Of a DNA stretch of 64,000 nt, positions 2,363 through 42,522 are shown one piece after another (the stretch's first letter is position 1; each line of letters starts with the position of its first letter). The notes beneath the pieces are model-generated. The model had not been told where the DNA came from and searched no databases. It saw nothing but the letters and a program-made list of their open reading frames with translations. This DNA is from an uncultured Actinomycetes bacterium (lineage in GTDB: Bacteria > Actinomycetota > UBA4738 > HRBIN12): contig CAVROD010000001.1 of assembly GCA_963722795.1 (NCBI GenBank), positions 81,684 to 145,683 on the forward strand, written 5' to 3'. Made by a program: the position numbers and the translations under genes.

Positions 2363-2453
2363 GGCCCTTCCATCGGCAGCCGCAACGTGAAGCCTGAACC
2401 GCCGGCATGGTCGCCCCCTGCACCCATCGGATGGGGTGACACACTGACTCCTC

Positions 2454-4547
2454 ATGAGCGGACGATCCGAACGACCTGCGAACCGGCTCGCGAACGAGAC
2501 GAGCCCGTACCTGCTGCAGCACGCTCACAACCCGGTCGATTGGTACCCCTGGGGCGACGAGGCCCTGCGCAAGGCTGCGGACGAAGACAAGCCCATCTTC
2601 CTGTCGATCGGGTATGCCGCCTGCCACTGGTGCCACGTGATGGAGCGGGAATCGTTCGAAGACGACGCGACGGCGGCGCTGATGAACGAGCACTTCGTCT
2701 CGATCAAGGTCGACCGCGAGGAACGCCCCGACCTCGACGGCATCTACATGGACGCCGTGCAGGCGATGACCGGACAGGGCGGCTGGCCGCTCTCGGCTTT
2801 CCTCACCCCCAGGGGTGAGCCGTTCCACGCCGGCACGTACTTCCCGCCGGAGCCCCGCCACGGCATGCCGGCATTCCGCGACCTGCTCGCCGGCATCGCG
2901 GCGGCCTGGCAGCAGCGTCGCGACGAGGTCGATGACCAGGGCCAACGCGTCGCCGCCGCGATCGCTCGGGCGTCGTCGCTGCGTTCGAACGACGCGGCGC
3001 TCGACGAGGCGCTCGTGTTCGCCGCGACGACATCGCTGCTGGGCACGTTCGACGGCCGATGGGGCGGGTTCGGCGGCGCACCGAAGTTCCCCCAGCCGAT
3101 GACGCTCGAGTTCCTGCTGCGACGGGCCGTGCGCGGCGGCCCGGAGGCGGTCGAAGTGCTCGACGCGGTGAGCACGACCCTCGATCGCATGGCCGCCGGC
3201 GGTATCTACGACCACCTCGGAGGCGGCTTCGCCCGCTACTCGACCGACGAGCGCTGGCACGTGCCGCACTTCGAGAAGATGCTCTACGACAACGCGCAGC
3301 TGCTGCAGGTGTACACGCGCGCCTGGCAGGTCACCGGCGCCGACCGCTACCGCACCGTGGTCCGCGAGACCGCCGAGTACCTGTTGCGCGAGATGCAGCA
3401 TCCCGAAGGGGGCTTCTTCTCGTCGCAGGACGCCGATTCCGACGGGGTCGAGGGGAAGTTCTTCACATGGTCGTGGGCCGAGCTCACCGAGCTGATCGGC
3501 GAACCGGTCGCTCGGGCATTCGGCGCCACCCCCGACGGCAACTGGGCCGGGGAGGACGGGCGCACCAACGTGCTCTGGCGGCCGCGCTCGATCGCGGAGG
3601 TCGCGATCGAGAACGGCCTCGATGCAGCCGAACTGCAGGCGGAGGTCGAGGATGCGCGGCCGGCGTTGTTCGCGGCGCGCGAGACCCGCACGCACCCCGC
3701 GACCGACGACAAGGTGCTGGCCGCCTGGAACGGCATGACCATCGCTGCGCTCGCCGAAGCCGGACGCGTGTTCGATGAACCCGACTACGTGACGGCGGCC
3801 GAGCGCGCCGCCACGTTCGTACTGACGCACCTGCGGGGCCCCTCAGGCCGCCTGCTGCGATCGTGGCGCAACGGGGTTGCGGGACGCACCGGGTTCGCCG
3901 ACGACCACGCCCTCATGGCCTCAGCCTGCCTGACCCTGTTCGAGACGACGTTCGAGGCCGCGTGGTTCGACCGAGCGACGGAGCTCACCGGTGAGCTGCG
4001 ACGTCTGTTCCCCGACCGTGAGGCCGGTGGGTTCTTCATGACGGGCGCTGACGCCGACGCGCTGCTCGTGCGGCCCAAGGAGTTGTACGACAACGCCACG
4101 CCCAGCGGGAACTCGGTGGCGGCCGACCTGCTGCTGCGGCTCTCGGCGTTCACGGGCGACGCGACGTTCGAGGCGGAGGCGGTGTCGGCGCTCCGGCTCG
4201 TCGGCGATGCGCTGCCCCGCGCCCCCGGCGCGTTCGGCCAGGCGCTCTGCGCCCTCGACCGGTTGCTCGGCCCCACCCGGGCGGTCGCGATCGTTGGCGA
4301 GCCCGAGCGCGACGACACCCGGGCCCTCGTGACCGAAGCGAACCGCCGCCGCTACCGCCCGAACATCGTGCTCGCGGTCAGCGCCGACGACGATGCCGAC
4401 GCGCGGCGGGCGGTCCCGCTGCTCCGGGACCGCGCCGCCATCGGCGGCCGGGCGACCGCCTACGTCTGCGAAGGGTTCTCGTGCCGTGTGCCCGTCGCCG
4501 ACCCCGATGCCCTCACCGAGCAACTCGCCGAGGCCGTCGGGGGCTGA
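2454..4547 (+). CDS. DUF255 thioredoxin-domain protein (YyaL-like, N-acylglucosamine-epimerase-like C-terminal fold)
   Basis: 697-aa intact ORF. N-terminal signature [58 protein letters not shown]. Confidence 0.9.
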
Positions 4548-7781: not shown

Positions 7782-7866
7782 GCGGGCATTACCGCGGGTG
7801 ACGCCCGCACCGGCATACTGCGAAGCTTCCGCGGGTGACGCGGACAGACCTCACGGAGGAACCGCC

Positions 7867-12911: not shown

Positions 12912-13886
12912 ATGGACCGAGCGCGGCTGCACCGCAGCGAGCTGGCCGTGCCCGGCACGAACGTGCGCGCGATGGAGAAGGCGCCGACGCTCGGCGCCGA
13001 CGTGGTCTTCCTCGACCTCGAGGACGCCGTCGCGCCCGACGACAAGGAGCGGGCGCGCGCGAACGTCATCGAGGCGCTCGGCGCGCCACGACTGGTCGCG
13101 GCTGCGGCGGTCAGCGTGCGGGTCAACGGCCTCGACACGCACTGGTGCTACCGCGACATCGTCGACGTGGTGGAAGCGCGCGGCGACGTGCTCGACACCG
13201 TGCTCGTGCCCGAAGGTCGGCATCGCCGTCGCGACGTGGAGTTCGTCGCGACGCTGCTCGACCAGATCGAGCAGCGCAACGGCTGGGATGCGGGCCGCAT
13301 CGGCATCCACATCCTGATCGAGACCGCCGCGGGCATGGCCGAACGTCGAGGCGATCGCGCGCGCGCGGCCCGACCGGCTCGAGGCGATGGTGTTCGGGGT
13401 CGCCGACTACGCCGCGAGCGTGCAGGCGCGCACCACGAACATCGGCGGCGCCAACCCCGACTACTCGGTGCTCACCGACCCAGACCCGGCGAGCGGTGCA
13501 AGGAGCGCGCACTGGGGCGACCAGTGGCACTTCGGCATCTCGCGCATGGTCGCGGCGTGCCGCGCCCACGGCCTGCGGCCGATCGACGGGCCGTTCGGCG
13601 ACTACACCGACGCCGACGGCTACCGCAGCGCCGCCCGCCGCGCGGCGCCCTGGGGTGCGAGGGCAAGTGGGCGATCCACCCCTCGCAGGTCGACGCTGGC
13701 GAACGAGGTCTTCACGCCCTGCCGAGCACGAGGTGGACGCGCGCGGAACGCATCCTGCAGGCGATGGAGGAGGCGGCGAAGGACGGCAAGGGGGCGGTCT
13801 CGCTCGACGGCCGCCTGATCGACGCCGCGTCGATCCGCATGGCCGAGAACCTGATGCGCAAGGTCGAGCAGATGCGCGCCCGCTGA
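12912..13886 (+). pseudogene. HpcH/CitE-family aldolase-lyase, malyl-CoA lyase-like; several frame breaks as sequenced
   Basis: RSELAVPGTNVRAMEKAPTLGADVVFLDLEDAVAPDDKERAR, VRVNGLDTHW, LIETAAGMA, MVFGVADYAASV, GLRPIDGPFGDYTDADGY, GCEGKWAIHPSQV, KDGKGAVSLDGRLIDAASIRMA. These segments are spread over three frames. Confidence 0.7.
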
Positions 13887-20608: not shown

Positions 20609-22443
20609 TCACTCCGCTTTCGGGCGGCCTCGGCGCGAGGCCTTCTGGCGGTCGTTCTGAGGCAGCAGCACCTTGCGGAGTCGCACGTTCTTCGGCGTGA
20701 CCTCGACGCACTCGTCCTCGCGCAGGAACTCGAGGGCCTGCTCGAGCGAGAGCTGCGTCTTCGGGATGAGCCGCACCAACTCCTCGGCGTTGGCCTTGCG
20801 CATGTTCGTGAGGTGCTTCTCCTTCGTGGGGTTCACGTCCATGTCCTCGGCGCGCGCGTTCTCGCCGACGATCATGCCCTCGTAGACCTCTTCGCCCGGG
20901 CCGACGAACATCGAGCCGCGTTCCTGCAGGTTCAACAGGGCGAACTGGGTCGTCTCGCCGCGGCGGTCGGCGACGAGCGAGCCGCTCGGGCGCGTGCGCA
21001 ACTCGCCGTGCCAGGGCTCGTAGCCCTCGAACACATGGTGCAGCTGGCCGGTGCCGCGGGTCTCGGTCATGAACTCGGTGCGGAACCCGATCAGGCCGCG
21101 CGCCGGCACGAGGTACTCCATGCGGATCCACCCCGTGCCGTGGTTCACCATCTGCTCCATGCGCCCCTTGCGCAGCGCGAGCAGCTGGCTGATCACGCCC
21201 AGGAACTCCTCGGGGGCGTCGACCGCGACGCGCTCCATCGGCTCGAAGAGCTTGCCGTCGACGGTCTTCGTGACCACCTGCGGCTTGCCGACCGTGAGCT
21301 CGAACCCCTCGCGCCGCATCATCTCCACCAGGATGGCGAGCTGCAGCTCGCCGCGGCCCTGCACCTCCCACATCTCCGGCCGGTCGGTCTCGAGCACGCG
21401 GATCGAGACGTTGCCGACGACCTCCTGATCGAGTCGCGACTTCAGCAGGCGGGCGGTGACCTTGTCGCCGTCCTGGCCGCTGAGCGGCGACGTGTTGATC
21501 GCCACGGTCATCGATAGCGACGGCTCGTCGACGTGGGTGATCGGGCAGCGGCCTCGGGTCGGCGGGGTCGGCGAGCGTCTCGCCGATCGTGATCTCGTCG
21601 ATGCCCGCGACCGCGATGATCTCGCCCGGCCCGGCCTCGTCGGTGTCGACCCGGTCGAGGGCGTCGGTCACGTACAGCTCGCTCAGTTTCTGCTGCTCGA
21701 TCGTGCCGTCGGCCCGGCACCACGCGACCGGCTGCCCCTTGCGCACGACCCCGTTGAACACCCGGCAGAGCGCGAGCCGCCCGACGTAGGGCGAGGCGTC
21801 GAGGTTCGTCACGAGCGCCTGCATCGGGTGGCCCTCGACGTACTCCGGCGCCGGGATGTGCGCGAGCAGCGTCTCGAACAACGGCTTCAGGTCGTCGGCG
21901 AGCGCGTCGGGCGACTCGCCCCGCCTTCCCCTCACGCGAGACCGCGTACAGGATCGGGAACGAGATCTGGTGCTCGTCGGCGTCGAGGTCGAGGAAGAGC
22001 TCCTCGACCTCGTGCACGACCTCGTCGGGGCGCGCGTCGGCCCGGTCGACCTTGTTCACCACCAGGATCACCGGCAGCCGCGACTCGAGCGCCTTGCGCA
22101 GCACGAACCGGGTCTGCGGCAGCGGCCCCTCGCTCGCGTCGACGAGCAGCAGCACGCCGTCGACCATCGTGAGCGCGCGCTCGACCTCGCCCCCGAAGTC
22201 GGCGTGGCCCGGCGTGTCGACGATGTTGATCTTCACGTCGCCGTAGCGCACCGCGGTGTTCTTCGCGAGGATCGTGATGCCCTTCTCGCGCTCGAGGTCC
22301 ATCGAGTCCATGACGCGCTCGGCCACGTCCTGGTTGTCGCGGAACGCCCCGGACTGCCACAGCATCGCGTCGACGAGCGTGGTCTTGCCGTGGTCGACGT
22401 GGGCCACGATCGCCACGTTGCGGATGTCATCTCTGGTCGCCAC
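20609..22443 (-). pseudogene. typA: translational GTPase TypA/BipA; two frame breaks as sequenced
   Basis: N-terminus [40 protein letters not shown]. Middle segment [15 protein letters not shown]...[19 protein letters not shown] and a C-terminal 300 aa lie in two other frames. Breaks are near 21930 and 21515. Confidence 0.9.
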
Positions 22444-28452: not shown

Positions 28453-29407
28453 ATGGCTCGGGGGCGCGCAGCGACGGAGGGCAACTCGCTCACGATGCTG
28501 TACCCGCGCGGCTTCTGGAAGTGGGCCGCGACACCGGGCGTGCTCTGGCTGATCCTGCTGTTCGTCGTGCCCTTCTACGCGCTCGTATCGATGGCCGGCG
28601 GCTCGCTCGACCCCGCGACCGGCCTCGCCGTGCCCCAATGGAACCCGGCTTACTGGGATCGCGCGTCGTACCACTACGTGTTCGAACAGCTCCTGTCGAG
28701 CGACGGCGTGTACCGGGTGGTCTTCGTTCGCACCCTGCGCTACGTGTTCACCGCCGTGGTCCTGTGCCTGCTGATCGGCTACCCGGTCGCCTACTACGTC
28801 TCGCGCTTGCGAGGCCGCATGCGCGGGTTGATGCTCGCGCTGCTCGTGCTGCCGTTCTGGATCAGCTACCTGATGCGCATGCTCGCCTGGGTCGGCCTGC
28901 TGAACGAGGAAGGCCTGGTGAACCGCGTGCTCACGGGCCTCGGCATCCTGTCGGACCCCTACCCCTGGCTCGAGGGCAAGAGCATCACGGTGATCTTCGG
29001 CCTGGCGTACGGCTACGCCCCGTTCCTCATCCTGCCGCTGTTCGCGGCCCTCGACCGCCTGCAGAACAGCTACCTGGAAGCCGCGTGGGACCTCGGGGCC
29101 AGCTCGTTCAGCACGTTCGTGCGGGTGACGCTGCCGCTGTCGAAGAACGGCATCCTCGCCGGGCGTCGCGATCATCATGCTGCCGATGTTCGGCGACTTC
29201 TACACCGCCTACCTGCTGTCGAACGGGCGGTCGAGCACGGCGATGATCGGCAACTCGATCCAATCGCTGCTGCAGGAGACGACGTTCGGCTACGCCCAGG
29301 CGCGCGGGGCCGCGCTCGTCACCGTGCTCGCCATCTTCGTGTCGTTGCTCACGCTGTACTACATCGTGTCGACCGCACGCAGCACCCGGGAGGCGAGTCG
29401 GGCATGA
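28453..29407 (+). pseudogene. ABC transporter permease, PotB-like; one frame break near 29165
   Basis: Multi-TM ORF with the EAA-type loop (SYLEAAWDLGASSFSTFVRVTLPLSKNGILAG). The C-terminal 76 aa continue in ORF 29177..29407. Confidence 0.8.
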
Positions 29408-30283
29408 GCGCCGTCGGCACGTTCTTCGCGAACCCGTGGCGCAAGCACCGTTTCCTGGCGTTGTACTCGTGGCTCTACGTGCTGTGGGCGATCGTGCCCG
29501 TCGTGATCGCGATCGGCTTCTCGTTCAACGCCGGCCGGTCGAGGAGCGTGTGGCAGGGCTTCTCGCTGGAATGGTGGATCGGCAACCCCGATCTGTCGGT
29601 GCTGCACGACCCCACGCTCACCTCGGCGATCCGCCAGAGCCTGATCCTCGCGGTGGTGACGATGGTGATCGCCACGCCGATCGGCGTGGCGCTGGCGCTC
29701 GGCCTCGCACGCTGGCACGGGCACGGGTCCGGCGCGGCCAATTACCTGATGCTGCTGCCCCTCGTCACCCCCGAGATCGTGCTCGCCACCGGCATCTTCT
29801 TCACGCTGGTCTTCCTCTACCCGTTCCCCGACCCGGGCACCATCGGCCAGATCGTGGGCCACGTGACGTGGTCGATCCCGTACGTGGTCGTGGTGCTGCG
29901 CGGCCGCATCTTCGGCGTCGGTCCCGAGCTCGAGGAAGCCGCGATGGACCTTGGCGCGCCGCCGCTCGACGCGCTGCGCCGGGTGATGCTGCCCGTGCTC
30001 GCCCCGGCCATCTTCGCCGCGTTCACGATCGTGTTCGCCCTGTCGATCGACGACTTCGTGACGAGCCAGTTCCTGTCGACCGACCTGAAGACGCAGACCG
30101 TGCCGATGCTGATCTACAGCTCCGGGTCGCACCGCCCCGAACCCCGCGCTCAACGCGACCGCGACGCTGATGCTCGTGATCTCGCTCGCCGCCATCGGCA
30201 TCGGGGTCGGGGGCATGCGCGCCCTCGCCCGGCGCCAGGGCGTGCAAGCCGAGGGCACCGACGTCGCCAACTTCCGACTCTGA
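29404..30283 (+). pseudogene. ABC transporter permease, PotC-like; one frame break near 30130
   Basis: ATG 29404 overlaps the upstream TGA. Loop motif LEEAAMDLGAPPLDALRRVMLPVLAPAI. The tail (LNATATLMLVISLAAIGIG...) is in another frame and ends at TGA 30281-30283. Confidence 0.8.
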
Positions 30284-30298
30284 CGAAGGCCGCAGCCC

Positions 30299-31130
30299 AT
30301 GGCCCAGCCCACGATCGCCGACCTGCTCCGACCCGAGATCGACGGGCCCATCCTGCCCGGCATCGACCCCCGTGGCACGCCCGGCGTGGGCGATCGAGAC
30401 GAGGCGGAAGCGGCGATGGAAGGCGCTCGCCGACCGACTCGACGACTTGCAGGAGGCGCTGTGGGTGGAGGGGTCGCGCTCACTGCTCGTGGTGCTGCAG
30501 GGCATGGACACGAGCGGCAAGGGCGGCACGGTGCGCCACGTGTTCTCGGCGATGAACCCCGCCGGGGTCGAGGTCGCTTCGTTCAAGAAGCCCACCGAGG
30601 AAGAGCTCTCGCACCACTTCCTGTGGCGCATCGAACGACGGCTGCCGGCGCCGGGTGAGATCGTCGTGTTCGACCGCTCGCACTACGAGGACGTGCTCGT
30701 GGCGCGCGTGCGCTCGCTCGTGCCCGAGAACGTCTGGCGGTCCCGCTACGACGAGATCGATGCGTTCGAGCAACGGGTGGTCGCCGCCGGCACCACGATC
30801 GTGAAGTGCATGCTGCATATCTCCTACGAGGAGCAGCGCGAGCGGCTGCTCGCCCGGCTCGACGACCCGTCGAAGCACTGGAAGTTCAACGAGGGCGACC
30901 TCGAGGAACGCTCTCGCTGGCTCGAGTACCAGGCCGCCTACGAGGACGCGATCCGCGAGTGCTCCACCGATATCGCGCCGTGGCACGTGATCCCCGCCGA
31001 CCGCAAGTGGTACCGCGACTGGGCCATCTCGAACCTGCTCGTCGAGACGCTGGAAGGTCTCGACCCGCGCCTGCCGCAGCCCGATCTCGACGTGGAAGCA
31101 CTGCAGGCGCGGCTGGCGCCTCCCAACTAG
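30299..31130 (+). pseudogene. polyphosphate kinase 2 (PPK2) family protein; one frame break at the G run 30422-30423
   Basis: Motifs LLVVLQGMDTSGKGGTVRHV (Walker A), VVFDRSHYEDVLV, KHWKFNEGDLEERSRW and APWHVIPADRKWYRDW. The N-terminal 41 codons are in the ORF that starts at 30299. Confidence 0.85.
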
Positions 31131-31191
31131 CGAACCGATGCACCAGGCGCGGCCGGCATCCCTTCGCGCGTCCGGACCGTACCATCGGGTG

Positions 31192-31773
31192 ATGTCCCCT
31201 CGCCCGGTGAACGCGCTGCTCGGCCTCCTGTGCTTCACGGTGCTCGCGGCCGCGTGCTCGAGCGAGCCCACCGAGCCTGCCGCCACCGAGCCTGCCGCCA
31301 CCGATCGGTCGACGCCGGCCGCCGACGCCGCCACGCCTCCCGCATCGGATCGGTCGACTCCTGCGGCGACCGCCGTGCTGCGGTTCACCGCACCGAGGCT
31401 CGGCGGCGGCACCATCGAGGGTGAGGACTTCGCCGGGCGCGACGTCGCGTTCTGGTTCTGGGCGCCGTGGTGAACGACGTGCCAGGGGGCGGCCCCTGAC
31501 GTCGCGCAGGTTGCGCGAGACTACGGGAAGCAGGTGGCCTTCGTGGGTGTGCCGGGCAACGACTCGAGCGCGAACATGCAGGCGTTCGTCGACGAGTTCG
31601 GACTCGGGTTCCCGCAGGCCGTCACCGAAGACGGCTCGCTGTGGGCGTCGTTCGGGGTGGCCTACCAGCCGGCCTGGGTGTTCGTCGACGACTCCGGCGA
31701 GACGACGCTCGTGCCGACCGAGCTGCCGCGCGACGAGCTCGAGCGCACGCTCGACGAACTGATCGCGGCATGA
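31192..31773 (+). CDS. TlpA/ResA-like thioredoxin-fold lipoprotein with an in-frame TGA at the first Cys of the WCxxC motif (candidate selenoprotein, or a point-disrupted gene)
   Basis: ATG 31192 with lipobox VLAAAC. Sequence reads ...VAFWFWAPW-TGA(31471-31473)-TTCQGAAPDV...VAFVGVPGND...YQPAWVFVDDSGE. ORFs 31138..31473 and 31534..31773 share one frame. Confidence 0.65.
31476..31503 (+). promoter_or_regulatory. SECIS-like bulged hairpin starting 2 nt after the in-frame TGA
   Basis: Lower stem GACGU (31476-31480) pairs with ACGUC (31499-31503). After a GC bulge, upper stem CAGGGG (31483-31488) pairs with CCCCUG (31493-31498). Loop GCGG lies about 16 nt after the UGA. Confidence 0.35.
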
Positions 31774-31783
31774 ACGCGTGAGC

Positions 31784-32773
31784 TCAGCGAGCGGTCTCGT
31801 GCCAGGCGTCGAGCAGCGCGCGCTCCCGCTCCGGGCTCGGCCCCGCCGCCATCGGCCCCTGTCCACGCGCGCGGTCCCAGGCGAGCGTGTCCCGAACGGT
31901 CTCGACCGGCGGGCGGCACGTGAGGCCGGCGGCGAACGCGCGGCTCGGGTCGTACGCGTGGAAGCCCGGCGCCTCCGGCCACCACAACGGGAACGTCTCG
32001 TGCGGGTCGTCGTCCGCGCCCGTGAACGCCGCCGCGATGAACGGCTCGTCGACCCACGCCACTTGAGTCTCGACGCCCGCCGCGGCCGCCGACGCCTCGA
32101 TCAGCTCGCCCAAGGTCATCGTGGGTGCGCGGTCGACCACGCCGAACACGCCGGGCGTCGAGGCTTCGGCAAGCCGTAGCGCGAACGCCGCGAGGTCCCG
32201 GGCATCGACCCACTGCAGCCCGTAGTCGGCGGGCGCCGGCGCGATCATCTCGCCGCCGGCAGCGCCCCGGCGCACCCACGAGGTGAATCGGTCGGTGGGG
32301 TCGTGCGGGCCGACGATGAAGCCGGGCCGGATCACGCACGCCCGGTCGCCGAACACGGCCTGCACCTGTCGCTCGCAGGCCACCTTCAGGGGTCCGTACG
32401 TCTCGTCGGTCACCTCTTCGGTCTCGGGGAAGGGCGGTTCGAACACCGGGGAATCTTCGTTGGACCCGGGCGGCAGGTCCTCGGGATGCGCCGAGAGCGA
32501 GGAGATGAAGCCGTACCAGGCGCTCGTCGCGAGGGTCTCGGTCGAGGCACGCACCGCGCGGGGGATGTACCCGCACGTGTCGACCACGGCGTCGAACGTG
32601 CGCCCGGCGAGGGCGTCGACGCCCTCCTCCCGGTCGCCGATCACATGTTCGGCCTCGGGGAACAACTCTGTCGGTGTCCGATGGAACAACGTGACCTCGT
32701 GCCCGCGTTCGAGCGCCAACTCGGTGAGGGCGCGGCCCGAGAAGCGGGCCCCGCCGATCATCAGGAGCTTCAC
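31784..32773 (-). CDS. NAD-dependent epimerase/dehydratase family protein
   Basis: 329-aa ORF. N-terminal Rossmann motif MKLLMIGGARFSGRAL. The GTG start overlaps the stop of the upstream SDR gene (GTGA). Confidence 0.8.
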   Translation of the reverse strand: MKLLMIGGARFSGRALTELALERGHEVTLFHRTPTELFPEAEHVIGDREEGVDALAGRTFDAVVDTCGYIPRAVRASTETLATSAWYGFISSLSAHPEDLPPGSNEDSPVFEPPFPETEEVTDETYGPLKVACERQVQAVFGDRACVIRPGFIVGPHDPTDRFTSWVRRGAAGGEMIAPAPADYGLQWVDARDLAAFALRLAEASTPGVFGVVDRAPTMTLGELIEASAAAAGVETQVAWVDEPFIAAAFTGADDDPHETFPLWWPEAPGFHAYDPSRAFAAGLTCRPPVETVRDTLAWDRARGQGPMAAGPSPERERALLDAWHETAR

Positions 32774-33573
32774 CTGTCACCTCCGGTCGACTGGGCATCC
32801 CAGGGGTAGTACCAGGAGCCGGCCAGCTGCCCCCCGTCGACGACGAGGGTGGAGCCGTTCACGTACGAGGCGTCATCCGACGCCAGGAAGAGGATGGCGG
32901 CCGCCACCTCGGCCGCCCGGGCGAAGCGACGCTGCGGGATGCGGGGCATGTACCCCTCGACGAACCCATCGCTCGCCGCATCGGCCTCGATCATGGGCGT
33001 GATCGTCATGCCTGGCGCGACGGCGTTGCAGCGCACGCCGCGGTGCCCGAGCTCGTGCGCGAACGATCGCGTGAGCGAGATGAGCGCGGCCTTCGAGGCG
33101 TCGTAGGCCGCGAGCGGCGCCTCCGGCACGAGCCCGTCGATCGACGCCACGTTCACGATCGAGCCGGCCCCTCGCTCGACCATGTGCCGCGCGACCCCTT
33201 GGGAGACCCACAGCGCTGCATCGAGGTTGAGCGCGAAGGTCGAGCGCCAGTGCGCGGCGTCGACATCGAGCACCCCCGCGTCGAGCGCGATGCCGGCGGC
33301 GTTGACGAGCACCTCGATCGTGCCGGTCGCCGCGATCGCTGCGTCGACGATGCGCCGGGCCTGCCCGCGGTCCGAGAGGTCAGCCGCATCGAGGCGGACT
33401 CGCTGCGGCGCCGCACTCGCGTCTCGGGTCTGACGCAGGCGCTCCTCGTCTCGTCCGGTGATGGAGACCGAGGCGCCTTCCTCGAGGAGGGCGAGCGCGC
33501 ACGCGCGACCGATGCCGCTCGATGCGCCCGTCACGAGCGCATGGCGACCCTCGAATCGTCCCATGGCGGGCAT
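32770..33573 (-). CDS. short-chain dehydrogenase/reductase (SDR)
   Basis: Motifs ALVTGASSGIGRA, NAAG and the catalytic YDASKAAL. Confidence 0.85.
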   Translation of the reverse strand: MPAMGRFEGRHALVTGASSGIGRACALALLEEGASVSITGRDEERLRQTRDASAAPQRVRLDAADLSDRGQARRIVDAAIAATGTIEVLVNAAGIALDAGVLDVDAAHWRSTFALNLDAALWVSQGVARHMVERGAGSIVNVASIDGLVPEAPLAAYDASKAALISLTRSFAHELGHRGVRCNAVAPGMTITPMIEADAASDGFVEGYMPRIPQRRFARAAEVAAAILFLASDDASYVNGSTLVVDGGQLAGSWYYPWDAQSTGGDR

Positions 33574-33581
33574 GCTACTCG

Positions 33582-33675
33582 GCGGTGGACGCGCTCCCTC
33601 AGGTCCGCGCGGTGGACGCGCTCCCTCAGGTCCGCGCGGTGGACGCGCTCCCTTGAGCCCGCGCGGTGGACGCGC
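33582..33675. repeat. 27-bp tandem repeat, 3.5 copies, covering the 3' end and stop codon of the LacI gene
   Basis: GCGGTGGACGCGCTCCCTCAGGTCCGC at 33582 and 33609 (identical). A variant copy at 33636 has TCAGGT changed to TTGAGC. A 13-nt partial copy sits at 33663. Confidence 0.9.
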
Positions 33676-41304: not shown

Positions 41305-42270
41305 TCAGGCCTGGCCGATGGGGTCGCTCGAGAGGTCGCCGCGCACCGGACCGAGGGGCTCGCCGAGCTTCGAGGCCACCCGGTCGAGACGGGCGATGTA
41401 GGCGTAGATCTCCTCGCGCAGGCGCTTGGCGTGATCGCTCAGCCCCTGCAGGTCGGCGAGCTTCCAGTGCTTGTCGAGGATCGGGCGCAGCACCTGGTCG
41501 TGGTGGATGCGCAGGTTGTAGATGCCGGCCTGCGCCATCGCCTTCGCCTTCTCCCGGAAGCCGGGGATGCCCGCGCCGGGCATCGCGAAGTTCGTGATCT
41601 GCCGGTGCATCGCCTCGACCATGGCGCTCGGGTCGAGCTCGATCGCGTTGACCGCCATGTCGCGATAGAAGACGTAGTGCAGGTTCTCGTCGGTCGCGAC
41701 CCGCGAGCAGAGCTTCTCCGCGGTCTCGTCGTCGGTGATCGCGCCGGTGTTGCGGTGCGAGATGCGGGTGGCGAGCTCCTGGATCGTGGTGAAGACCACG
41801 CCGTCGAGCGGCCCCTGCTCGGAGAACTCCGGATACCAACCGCGCAGCATCTGATCCATGCGCCCCCGCTCGAGCAGCGTCGGGTCGACGCCTCGAGTCA
41901 CCGTGAGGTAGTCGCGGATCACGATGGCGTGGCGGCCCTCCTCGGCGGTCCACCGCCGAACCCACTCCCCCCACGCTTCCTCGTCGCCGAAGGTTCGCCA
42001 CAGGGCGAGGTGGTAGTAGGGAAGGTTGTCCTCGGTGAGCAGGTTCACCTCGAGCGCCGTCTGCGCGACGTCGGGCAGGCGCGAGTCGGCGGGCTGCCAC
42101 GGCTCCTTCACGAAGTTCCGGCCCTCTTCGTACGGCACGTAGTCGTGCGGCATCCACTCCGAGGTCGTCGACACGTGCCGGTCGAGCGCCGACCCGACCT
42201 GGGGCATGAGCTCATGCAGGATGGCTTCGCTCGACAGGCGCGCCGCGCCCGAAGTGTTGGGTGGGGTCAT
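41305..42270 (-). CDS. acyl-ACP desaturase (soluble di-iron, DesA type)
   Basis: 321-aa ORF. Motifs NLLTEDNLPYYH, WTAEEGRHAIVIRDYL, ELATRISHRNT and DENLHYVFY. Confidence 0.9.
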   Translation of the reverse strand: MTPPNTSGAARLSSEAILHELMPQVGSALDRHVSTTSEWMPHDYVPYEEGRNFVKEPWQPADSRLPDVAQTALEVNLLTEDNLPYYHLALWRTFGDEEAWGEWVRRWTAEEGRHAIVIRDYLTVTRGVDPTLLERGRMDQMLRGWYPEFSEQGPLDGVVFTTIQELATRISHRNTGAITDDETAEKLCSRVATDENLHYVFYRDMAVNAIELDPSAMVEAMHRQITNFAMPGAGIPGFREKAKAMAQAGIYNLRIHHDQVLRPILDKHWKLADLQGLSDHAKRLREEIYAYIARLDRVASKLGEPLGPVRGDLSSDPIGQA

Positions 42271-42522
42271 GTGCTCGCTCCTCGTATCGGTTCCGGGCCG
42301 CGCCGCCTCGGTTGCATGGGTTCAGTGCCGGAACCTGTGCAGGGGCTCTGCCACGCTGGCTCCGCCGCCCGTGGTCCGGGTCGCGGAGTCCCTCCAGGGT
42401 ACCGCGTGGCAGAGATCGCTCGCGCGACGCCATCCGAACGGGTGTGTCACGCGAAGGGGTGGGTAGGAAGGGGCCGTCGGGGCTGCGACGGTCGTCGAGG
42501 CACGACACGACGGGAGTCATCG

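Follow-up and report, generated by a model that had tools for sequence, protein, structure and literature searches.

A probable selenocysteine codon in the gene for a predicted DsbE/DsbF-like lipoprotein of uncultured Actinomycetota

The locus and its reading frame

The stretch of DNA analysed here (the window) is 64,000 nucleotides (nt) long and comes from an uncultured Actinomycetes bacterium (assembly GCA_963722795.1, positions 81,684 to 145,683 of the 730,700-bp contig CAVROD010000001.1). It contains a gene for a thioredoxin-fold protein, referred to below as the redoxin gene, whose frame is broken by one TGA. Two open reading frames (ORFs) on the forward strand, 31138..31473 and 31534..31773, share a common frame, and their sole interruption is the TGA at 31471-31473. 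Read-through of this codon gives ...DVAFWFWAPW-*-TTCQGAAPDVAQVARDY...YQPAWVFVDDSGE... The complete candidate selenoprotein gene is found at 31192..31773 (forward strand). It has 193 codons, including one UGA that would encode selenocysteine (Sec, U) as residue 94, and ends at a true stop, TGA 31771-31773. The frame could also start at the GTG of 31189. The lengths of the gene before and after the internal TGA match those of its relatives. The 79-amino acid (aa) ORF that gene callers report downstream of the UGA (31534..31773) is spurious.

Residue 94 (31471..31473) is the first position of a UxxC motif; at its codon, 46 homologous loci have TGC or TGT and another 36 have TGA. The resolving Cys97 of this U-T-T-C motif is encoded by TGC at 31480..31482; it is invariant in the alignment, for which the locus search pattern demanded a Cys codon at position 97. 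Over window positions 30996-33599 (2,604 bp), which include the TGA, the identity with an independent public assembly (Logan, run ERR11593888) is 100%. Because this assembly was made separately, the TGA at 31471-31473 is not an artefact of the one analysed here. A previous reading of the window, made from the sequence only, had described two ORFs of one frame split by a single TGA at the first Cys of a WCxxC motif. The frame and the read-through are as described, and the aligned relatives have Cys there in WAPW-CxxC. TGC or TGT at 31471-31473, which would refute that reading, is not seen in the Logan assembly, which likewise has TGA.

The encoded protein

The N-terminus of the product, MSPRPVNALLGLLCFTVLAAAC, is a hydrophobic signal peptide that ends in a lipobox-type Cys22. 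The signal peptide with its lipobox (…TVLAAA-C22) is encoded at 31192..31257, with the codon of the anchor Cys at 31255-31257; up to the lipobox Cys it reads MSPRPVNALLGLLCFTVLAAA-C22. The lipobox (VLAAAC) had been noticed in the sequence-only reading, and A21 and C22 are indeed invariant in Sec and Cys relatives alike. Thus lipidation at Cys22 and a lipoprotein are predicted. Next comes a Pro/Thr/Ala-rich low-complexity linker, SSEPTEPAATEPAATDRSTPAADAATPPASDRSTPAATA (31258..31374), whose length and sequence vary among relatives. The rest of the gene (31375..31770) encodes a thioredoxin-fold domain of the TlpA/ResA/DsbE-like group (cd02966), which spans the UGA. With Cys placed at the UGA, the product scores above the Pfam gathering scores of AhpC-TSA (PF00578, residues 62-169; 44.5 bits vs 26), Redoxin (PF08534, residues 65-170; 36.3 vs 26.6), Thioredoxin (30.9 vs 23.5), and Thioredoxin_8. 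The codon of Pro160 (…YQ-P-AW…, 31669..31671) is at the cis-Pro position of thioredoxin-fold proteins. Pro160 is invariant and would presumably be in the cis conformation.

Among solved structures, the best match is Mycobacterium tuberculosis DsbF (Rv1677, PDB 3IOS), with E 4.7e-32 and 45% identity over 130 residues, end to end. The next, also aligned end to end, is M. tuberculosis DsbE/MPT53 (Rv2878c, PDB 1LU4; E 2.8e-23), and ResA proteins come after it. The DsbF alignment crosses the TGA, placing U-T-T-C of the window protein opposite C-P-T-C. The invariant columns W93-[U94]-T-T-C97 and P160 line up with WCPTC and QP of DsbF. The window protein, DsbF, and DsbE, all actinobacterial and exported, have in common an N-terminal signal sequence, the WFWAPW-CxxC-xxEAP region, and the QP (cis-Pro) loop. 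DsbF is a lipoprotein, and both DsbE and DsbF are oxidases in published work. While DsbF and DsbE have Cys-x-x-Cys, the window protein has Sec-x-x-Cys. The best-supported assignment from these comparisons is a lipid-anchored extracytoplasmic thiol-disulfide oxidoreductase of the actinobacterial DsbE/DsbF type in which Sec would replace the attacking Cys.

The product scores below the cut-offs of the NCBIfam models for the reductants of cytochrome c maturation, NF002854 (ResA; 52.7 bits vs 170), TIGR00385 (DsbE/CcmG; 26.1 vs 123), and NF047696 (TlpA; 20.5 vs 230). The ResA-like WAxxUGC selenoprotein family NF041054 is alike in having a TlpA/ResA-like fold and Sec after a WA.. motif. However, its model has 354 positions and UGC, whereas the window protein has 193 aa and UxxC. 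With UTTC instead of UGC and a score of 20.3 bits against a cut-off of 300, the protein is not a member of this family.

Selenoproteins with UxxC and AhpC-TSA/Redoxin/TlpA-like domains have been catalogued since 2004-2008 and are also in a 2026 inventory. The catalogued families include the Prx-like thiol:disulfide oxidoreductase, the Prx-like 3/Redoxin family, the Thiol-disulfide isomerase-like family, and the Thiol:disulfide interchange protein. It is thus documented, as the previous reading had stated, that thiol-disulfide oxidoreductase selenoproteins are known in bacteria. These families have the same Pfam domains (PF00578 and PF08534) and Sec in the first position of UxxC, and they were found by the same logic of Sec/Cys pairs. 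They come mainly from Deltaproteobacteria and marine metagenomes, and the window gene was compared with them by description. Since the type is already catalogued, the redoxin gene is a new, possibly already listed, member of it.

Homologues with TGA or Cys at the same codon

The set of homologues contains 83 loci: 80 from a scan of one genome per species, the window, and the contigs of two proteins (P0033 and P0001) found in the first protein search. The codon at the Sec94 site is TGA in 37 of the 83 loci and TGC or TGT in the other 46. All of the TGA loci are from metagenome-assembled genomes (MAGs) labelled Actinomycetota, Actinomycetes, Acidimicrobiia/Acidimicrobiales, Nitriliruptorales, Egibacteraceae, or Euzebyaceae. 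The Cys loci are mostly from cultured genera (Streptomyces, Lentzea, Nonomuraea, Mycolicibacterium, and Paraoerskovia), with some MAGs. Several close relatives of the window carry 'MFD' isolate labels, which we take to mean Microflora Danica MAGs. Contigs with the TGA form include JAWPMS010000001.1 (4.87 Mb) and CAWGTU010000001.1 (1.82 Mb). The Sec form is also found in a cultured isolate, Egicoccus sp. AB-alg2 (GCA_041821065.1, JBGUAX010000004.1; 9641-10327 of locus L084). Its gene reads WMWTPW-TGA-LQCNREAP, carries a CCGC-GGUC-GCGG hairpin, and has been split into two annotated genes (119 and 108 aa).

Such genes are often stored in pieces. P0033 is a 119-aa 'hypothetical protein' whose last residues are exactly ...WFWAPW, and P0001 has Trp where TGA is expected. 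The contigs of both (L001 and L002) have TGA at the same codon, with a conserved frame onward. At 262-1044 of L002 the JGI caller used TGA as Trp, so that P0001 has W at the Sec site as well as at an upstream TGA; the caller here chose the wrong genetic code, misled by the presence of a selenoprotein gene on so short a contig. A profile search with the part after the TGA alone finds mainly fragments of 78-103 aa, i.e., miscalled C-terminal halves. The 76-79-aa C-terminal fragment of the window gene belongs to a 52-member cluster at 90% identity, which includes many JGI contigs and whose members are mostly named 'hypothetical protein'.

The region after the TGA is under purifying selection. Of the 36 complete TGA forms, 35 have an open frame of 98-105 codons past the TGA and end in the C-terminal helix of the Cys forms, which have 96-101 codons past the same position. 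Only L009 departs from this, its frame continuing beyond the usual end. Among the nearest relatives of the window, mean dN (nonsynonymous) and dS (synonymous) values downstream of the TGA are 0.125 and 0.517 (dN/dS 0.24); upstream of it, dN is 0.10 and dS is 0.84. The two questions that the sequence-only reading had left to homologues are answered in its favour: Cys codons occupy the site in the 46 loci set against the 37 with TGA, and the normal C-terminus is kept. A homologue truly ending at the TGA, with an unrelated gene downstream, was sought and not found among these homologues. In a neighbour-joining tree the TGA forms make one deep clade, in which a single Cys form (L013, TGC at 7841) is nested.

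RNA hairpins after the UGA

Two adjacent hairpins are found directly after the UGA of the redoxin gene, and each is a candidate for the selenocysteine insertion sequence (SECIS). The first, H1 (31476..31503; GACGU-GC-CAGGGG-GCGG-CCCCUG-ACGUC), begins 2 nt past the TGA, and its loop begins 16 nt past it. The upper stem pairs 31483-31488 with 31493-31498 around the loop GCGG (31489-31492). The lower stem pairs 31476-31480 with 31499-31503, has a 2-nt bulge, and is intact only in the window and L009. The 66-nt region folds with -33.6 kcal/mol (z = -3.3; 1 of 200 shuffles is as stable). The second hairpin, H2 (31502..31518; UCGCGCA-GGU-UGCGCGA), includes the rare Arg codon CGA, and its GGU loop is at +39..+41 from the U of the UGA. 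The previous reading had reported H1, a GC-rich bulged hairpin with its GCGG loop about 16 nt from the UGA, and had taken it for the SECIS. The hairpin is present, folds as stated, and is at the position of a SECIS. Its sole claim to that role is weakened, since the clade of the window has two conserved hairpins and the second may be the SelB site.

An alignment of the 54 nt from the TGA is free of gaps and divides the TGA forms into three groups. In the clade of the window, the upper stem of H1 occupies columns 13-18 / 23-28 and H2 columns 32-38 / 42-48. Here 86.7% of cells are paired, with 96.7% in the upper stem of H1 and 94.5% in H2, and four pairs have changes on both sides. In the Cys forms only 44% of the cells are paired in the same H1 columns. 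Pair 17/24 of H1 has G-C, A-U, C-G, and G-U variants, and pair 14/27 changes from A-U to G-C, matching CAG/CCT to CGG/CCC. In the second group, the 'NREAP…VAQLAR' forms, H1 is offset by 1.5 nt (columns 15-20 / 24-29) and H2 is unchanged, with 87.5% of its cells paired. The third group (Acidimicrobiia, Nitriliruptorales, and unclassified Actinomycetota) has one hairpin at columns 22-29 / 34-41, whose GGUC loop (+30..+33) is invariant; pairing holds in 97.8% of cells, and compensatory changes affect three pairs. Compensatory changes are thus seen in all three sub-clades. Another hairpin, at columns 25-28 / 37-40, was dropped because it is absent in L012, L014, and L017 by reading of the aligned sequences.

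These structures are specific to the TGA forms. A positioned hairpin of any of the three types is found in 36 of 37 TGA forms but in only 5 of 46 Cys forms (p = 6e-17). H2 with at least six of its seven pairs exists in 23/37 TGA forms and in 0/46 Cys forms (Fisher p = 3e-11). Directly past the codon, the mean fold z-score is -0.84 for TGA forms and -0.12 for Cys forms (p = 0.0009); further downstream the two are alike. The Pro codon CCT, which supplies a pairing U, is used at a pairing position in 20/37 TGA forms vs 0/46 Cys forms, and it makes up 5% of the Pro codons in the genes of the window. The nested Cys form L013 carries none of the three hairpin types. It is an apparent Sec-to-Cys reversion and a natural control for the hairpins.

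As in the type example of a bacterial SECIS, that of E. coli fdhF, a stem-loop within the coding sequence stands directly 3' of the UGA. The distance of H1 from the UGA is presumably about that of the fdhF element. Unlike SECIS elements of the fdhF type, however, the clade of the window has two adjacent hairpins, a variable H1 loop, and the GGU loop of H2 about 36 nt away. This GGU loop resembles the invariant GGUC loop of the more distant TGA forms, which we take to match the SelB-binding loop of fdhF. From these comparisons the SelB site would be either H1 or H2, and H2 with its GGU loop may be the real one.

Genes for Sec decoding

Sec machinery was looked for in the window and in the flanks of the 36 TGA-form loci (within 10 kb of the gene in either direction, or as far as the contig reached). 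ARAGORN finds no tRNA-Sec in the window, the 36 TGA-form loci, or the Egicoccus locus. The tblastn queries were E. coli SelA, SelD, and SelB sequences. Those of SelA and SelD were validated by Pfam (607, 92, and 84 bits), and the SelA query is 99-100% identical to E. coli SelA in the database. SelA and SelD have no match in the window or the flanks. The SelB-like matches all fall to TypA/BipA, through its GTPase domain, and were rejected; the TypA/BipA gene is syntenic with the redoxin gene. A database search with E. coli SelA gives only Enterobacteria among the 8000 candidates listed.

Sec use had been called uncommon in high-GC Actinomycetota in the sequence-only reading. This is contradicted by Peng et al. 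(2016), who list many actinobacteria positive for SelA, SelB, and SelD, among them Ilumatobacter (10-15 selenoproteins) and 'Ca. Microthrix' (7), and by the mycobacteria, about 40% of whose genomes have Sec machinery. In Actinomarina, it is found in all 84 complete genomes of one study.

The window and all flanks were also scanned for in-frame TGA codons with coding-like sequence on both sides, and no other convincing case exists inside the coding regions of the window. The candidates followed up there are ordinary gene ends; the TGA at 13884, for example, is the stop of an HpcH-type aldolase gene beside the start of sucC. One such codon is found in a flank, at about 7420 of L065 (reverse strand). 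Its flanks are coding-like, and the sequence around it resembles the active site of a rhodanese (…PVVVYCWDSL*DMSQRAAWQLERLGF). A second selenoprotein is one possible reading; an error of assembly and a pair of neighbouring genes are the others.

Weighing the readings of the TGA

In a pseudogene, a nonsense mutation would have turned TGC into TGA. Only one base change is needed, and the genome has other broken genes (TypA and potB/potC in the window are frame-disrupted). Nevertheless, the same TGA exists in 37 loci over several actinobacterial classes and in the 52-member metagenome cluster, and the downstream frame is intact and selected as described above, by which this explanation is effectively refuted. 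The other disruptions strike highly conserved genes such as TypA and resemble long-read indel errors, not decay. Equally improbable is that the locus holds two separate small genes or that the TGA is an error of sequencing or assembly. Gene callers do report two ORFs, and public databases keep the fragments as 'hypothetical protein'. The split, however, falls within the CxxC motif of one thioredoxin fold, and the first possible start is 21 codons past the TGA, so that the second Cys and the adjacent sequence would be lost from the downstream product. As for an error, the Logan assembly is identical, and contigs with names of the short-read assembler type (k141_, NODE_) have the same TGA.

Genome-wide reassignment of UGA, e.g., to Trp, can hardly be credited either. 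Within the window TGA is the commonest stop (26 of the 40 coding-like ORFs) and terminates the redoxin gene itself, and for this reason reassignment is excluded. The coding regions of the window have no other convincing in-frame TGA, and relatives have Cys rather than Trp at the site. UGA-to-Trp reassignment occurs mostly in low-GC genomes, whereas the G+C content of this genome is about 70%. In its favour, the JGI caller did translate the L002 gene with TGA as Trp, and such reassignment has recently been reported for Eggerthellaceae, within Actinomycetota (PMC13462651). Somewhat less remote, though still improbable, is read-through without selenium. The UGA would then be a leaky stop, stimulated by its context, where Trp, Cys, or Arg is supplied by a near-cognate tRNA, and the hairpins would promote read-through instead of binding SelB. 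It is favoured by the failure to find Sec machinery in the window and the flanks examined and by the lack of an Rfam SECIS match. The codon, however, aligns specifically with the catalytic Cys of CxxC, which is the typical Sec/Cys pairing. With Trp or Arg at this site the redox motif would be lost, yet the second Cys and the remaining fold are under selection. Moreover, Sec machinery is documented in related classes, and the distant TGA forms have their invariant GGUC loop.

Several observations weigh against a Sec codon. No tRNA-Sec, selA, selB, or selD is found in the 64-kb window or in the flanks of the 36 TGA-form loci. The Rfam scan gives no match to a SECIS family, although bacterial SECIS elements are poorly covered in Rfam; the only Rfam match near the site, Gammaretro_CES, has E = 1.7, which is chance level, and was rejected. 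The H1 loop is variable (GCGG, GCCG, UCAG, ACCG, and CACCGC). The H2 loop, about 36 nt from the UGA, is at the edge of the usual range, which the bSECISearch paper is said to give as 16-37 nt from the UGA to the apical loop. Finally, the hairpin and fold statistics count related sequences as independent, so their p-values overstate the case; the pattern is still clear. With these points taken into account, 31192..31773 is very probably one functional gene with a genuine Sec codon, encoding a lipid-anchored extracytoplasmic thiol-disulfide oxidoreductase of the thioredoxin-fold TlpA/ResA/DsbE group. The analysis itself shows the conservation of the UGA, the selection on the downstream frame, the RNA structure specific to UGA forms, and the membership of the fold.

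Proposed mechanism

The role of SelB, the insertion of selenium, the lipid anchor, and the redox direction are proposals. From established bacterial Sec biology, the UGA at 31471-31473 would be decoded co-translationally as Sec by SelB·GTP·Sec-tRNASec. SelB would be recruited by the mRNA stem-loop just 3' of the UGA, either H1 (31476-31503) or H2 (31502-31518). The preprotein would be exported and then acylated at Cys22. In the mature domain, U94-T-T-C97 would cycle between the selenol/thiol and selenenylsulfide states, trading redox equivalents with exported proteins. The enzyme may act as an oxidase like DsbE/DsbF or as a reductant like ResA/TlpA.

A more speculative proposal, rather doubtful as a whole, has three parts. 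In the clade of the window, the Sec signal would be a two-hairpin unit consisting of a variable but covarying H1 at the usual position and a conserved H2 with the GGU loop. SelB would actually bind H2, and H1 would serve as a folded spacer or make the ribosome pause. The DsbE/DsbF-like selenolipoprotein may also be a main reason that several uncultured soil lineages of Actinomycetota keep the Sec trait. Such a two-hairpin unit, if true, would be a positional variant of the bacterial SECIS.

Neighbouring genes and other features of the window

The neighbours of the redoxin gene are TypA, a peptidase, potB/potC, PPK2, and an epimerase, and the gene order is conserved only within its own lineage. 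No ccdA/resB/resC or CcdA/DsbD-type neighbour turned up in tblastn with the neighbour genes of the window, in which CcdA itself was not searched for. TypA/BipA (20609-22443, reverse strand) is readable only across three frames, and potB/potC (28453-30555, forward strand) change frame. Relatives have intact TypA copies with 90-99% identity. The disruptions look more like indel errors of long reads than like decaying genes. That all other disruptions in the window are indels, as the previous reading had it, agrees with the frame changes in TypA and potB/potC; the check was confined to these two.

ARAGORN calls a tRNA-Thr at 2452-2529 (reverse strand) and an 88-nt tRNA-Arg(acg) at 33048-33135 (reverse strand). 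Both are inside coding-like ORFs where the Rfam tRNA model is silent, and both are probably false positives. The only match in the window at the Rfam gathering threshold is the ASdes small RNA (41874-41940, forward strand; 56.8 bits), which lies opposite a coding-like ORF at 41305-42321. Since this family is described as 'TB sRNA', the match may merely reflect conserved coding sequence. A 699-aa ORF at 2448-4547 (forward strand) matches DUF255/Thioredox_DsbH (260 bits); it is thioredoxin-like and has ordinary Cys codons as far as inspected.

Implications

For the selenoprotein field nothing here is conceptually new: this would be an ordinary kind of selenoprotein, routinely miscalled as two small genes. 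For annotation, the gene and dozens of its relatives are stored as two 'hypothetical' fragments or translated with the wrong code. Recognising the Sec codon would restore a full-length exported redox enzyme and correct a widespread mis-annotation. Egicoccus sp. AB-alg2 is in culture and has the Sec form, so direct tests are open to three questions: whether selenium is incorporated, which of the two hairpins is the SECIS, and what Sec in place of Cys does to an extracytoplasmic redox protein. If the Sec reading is right, the homologues of mycobacterial DsbE/DsbF include an old Sec clade across Acidimicrobiia, Nitriliruptoria, and uncultured Actinomycetes, and therefore Sec decoding is implied in these soil lineages.

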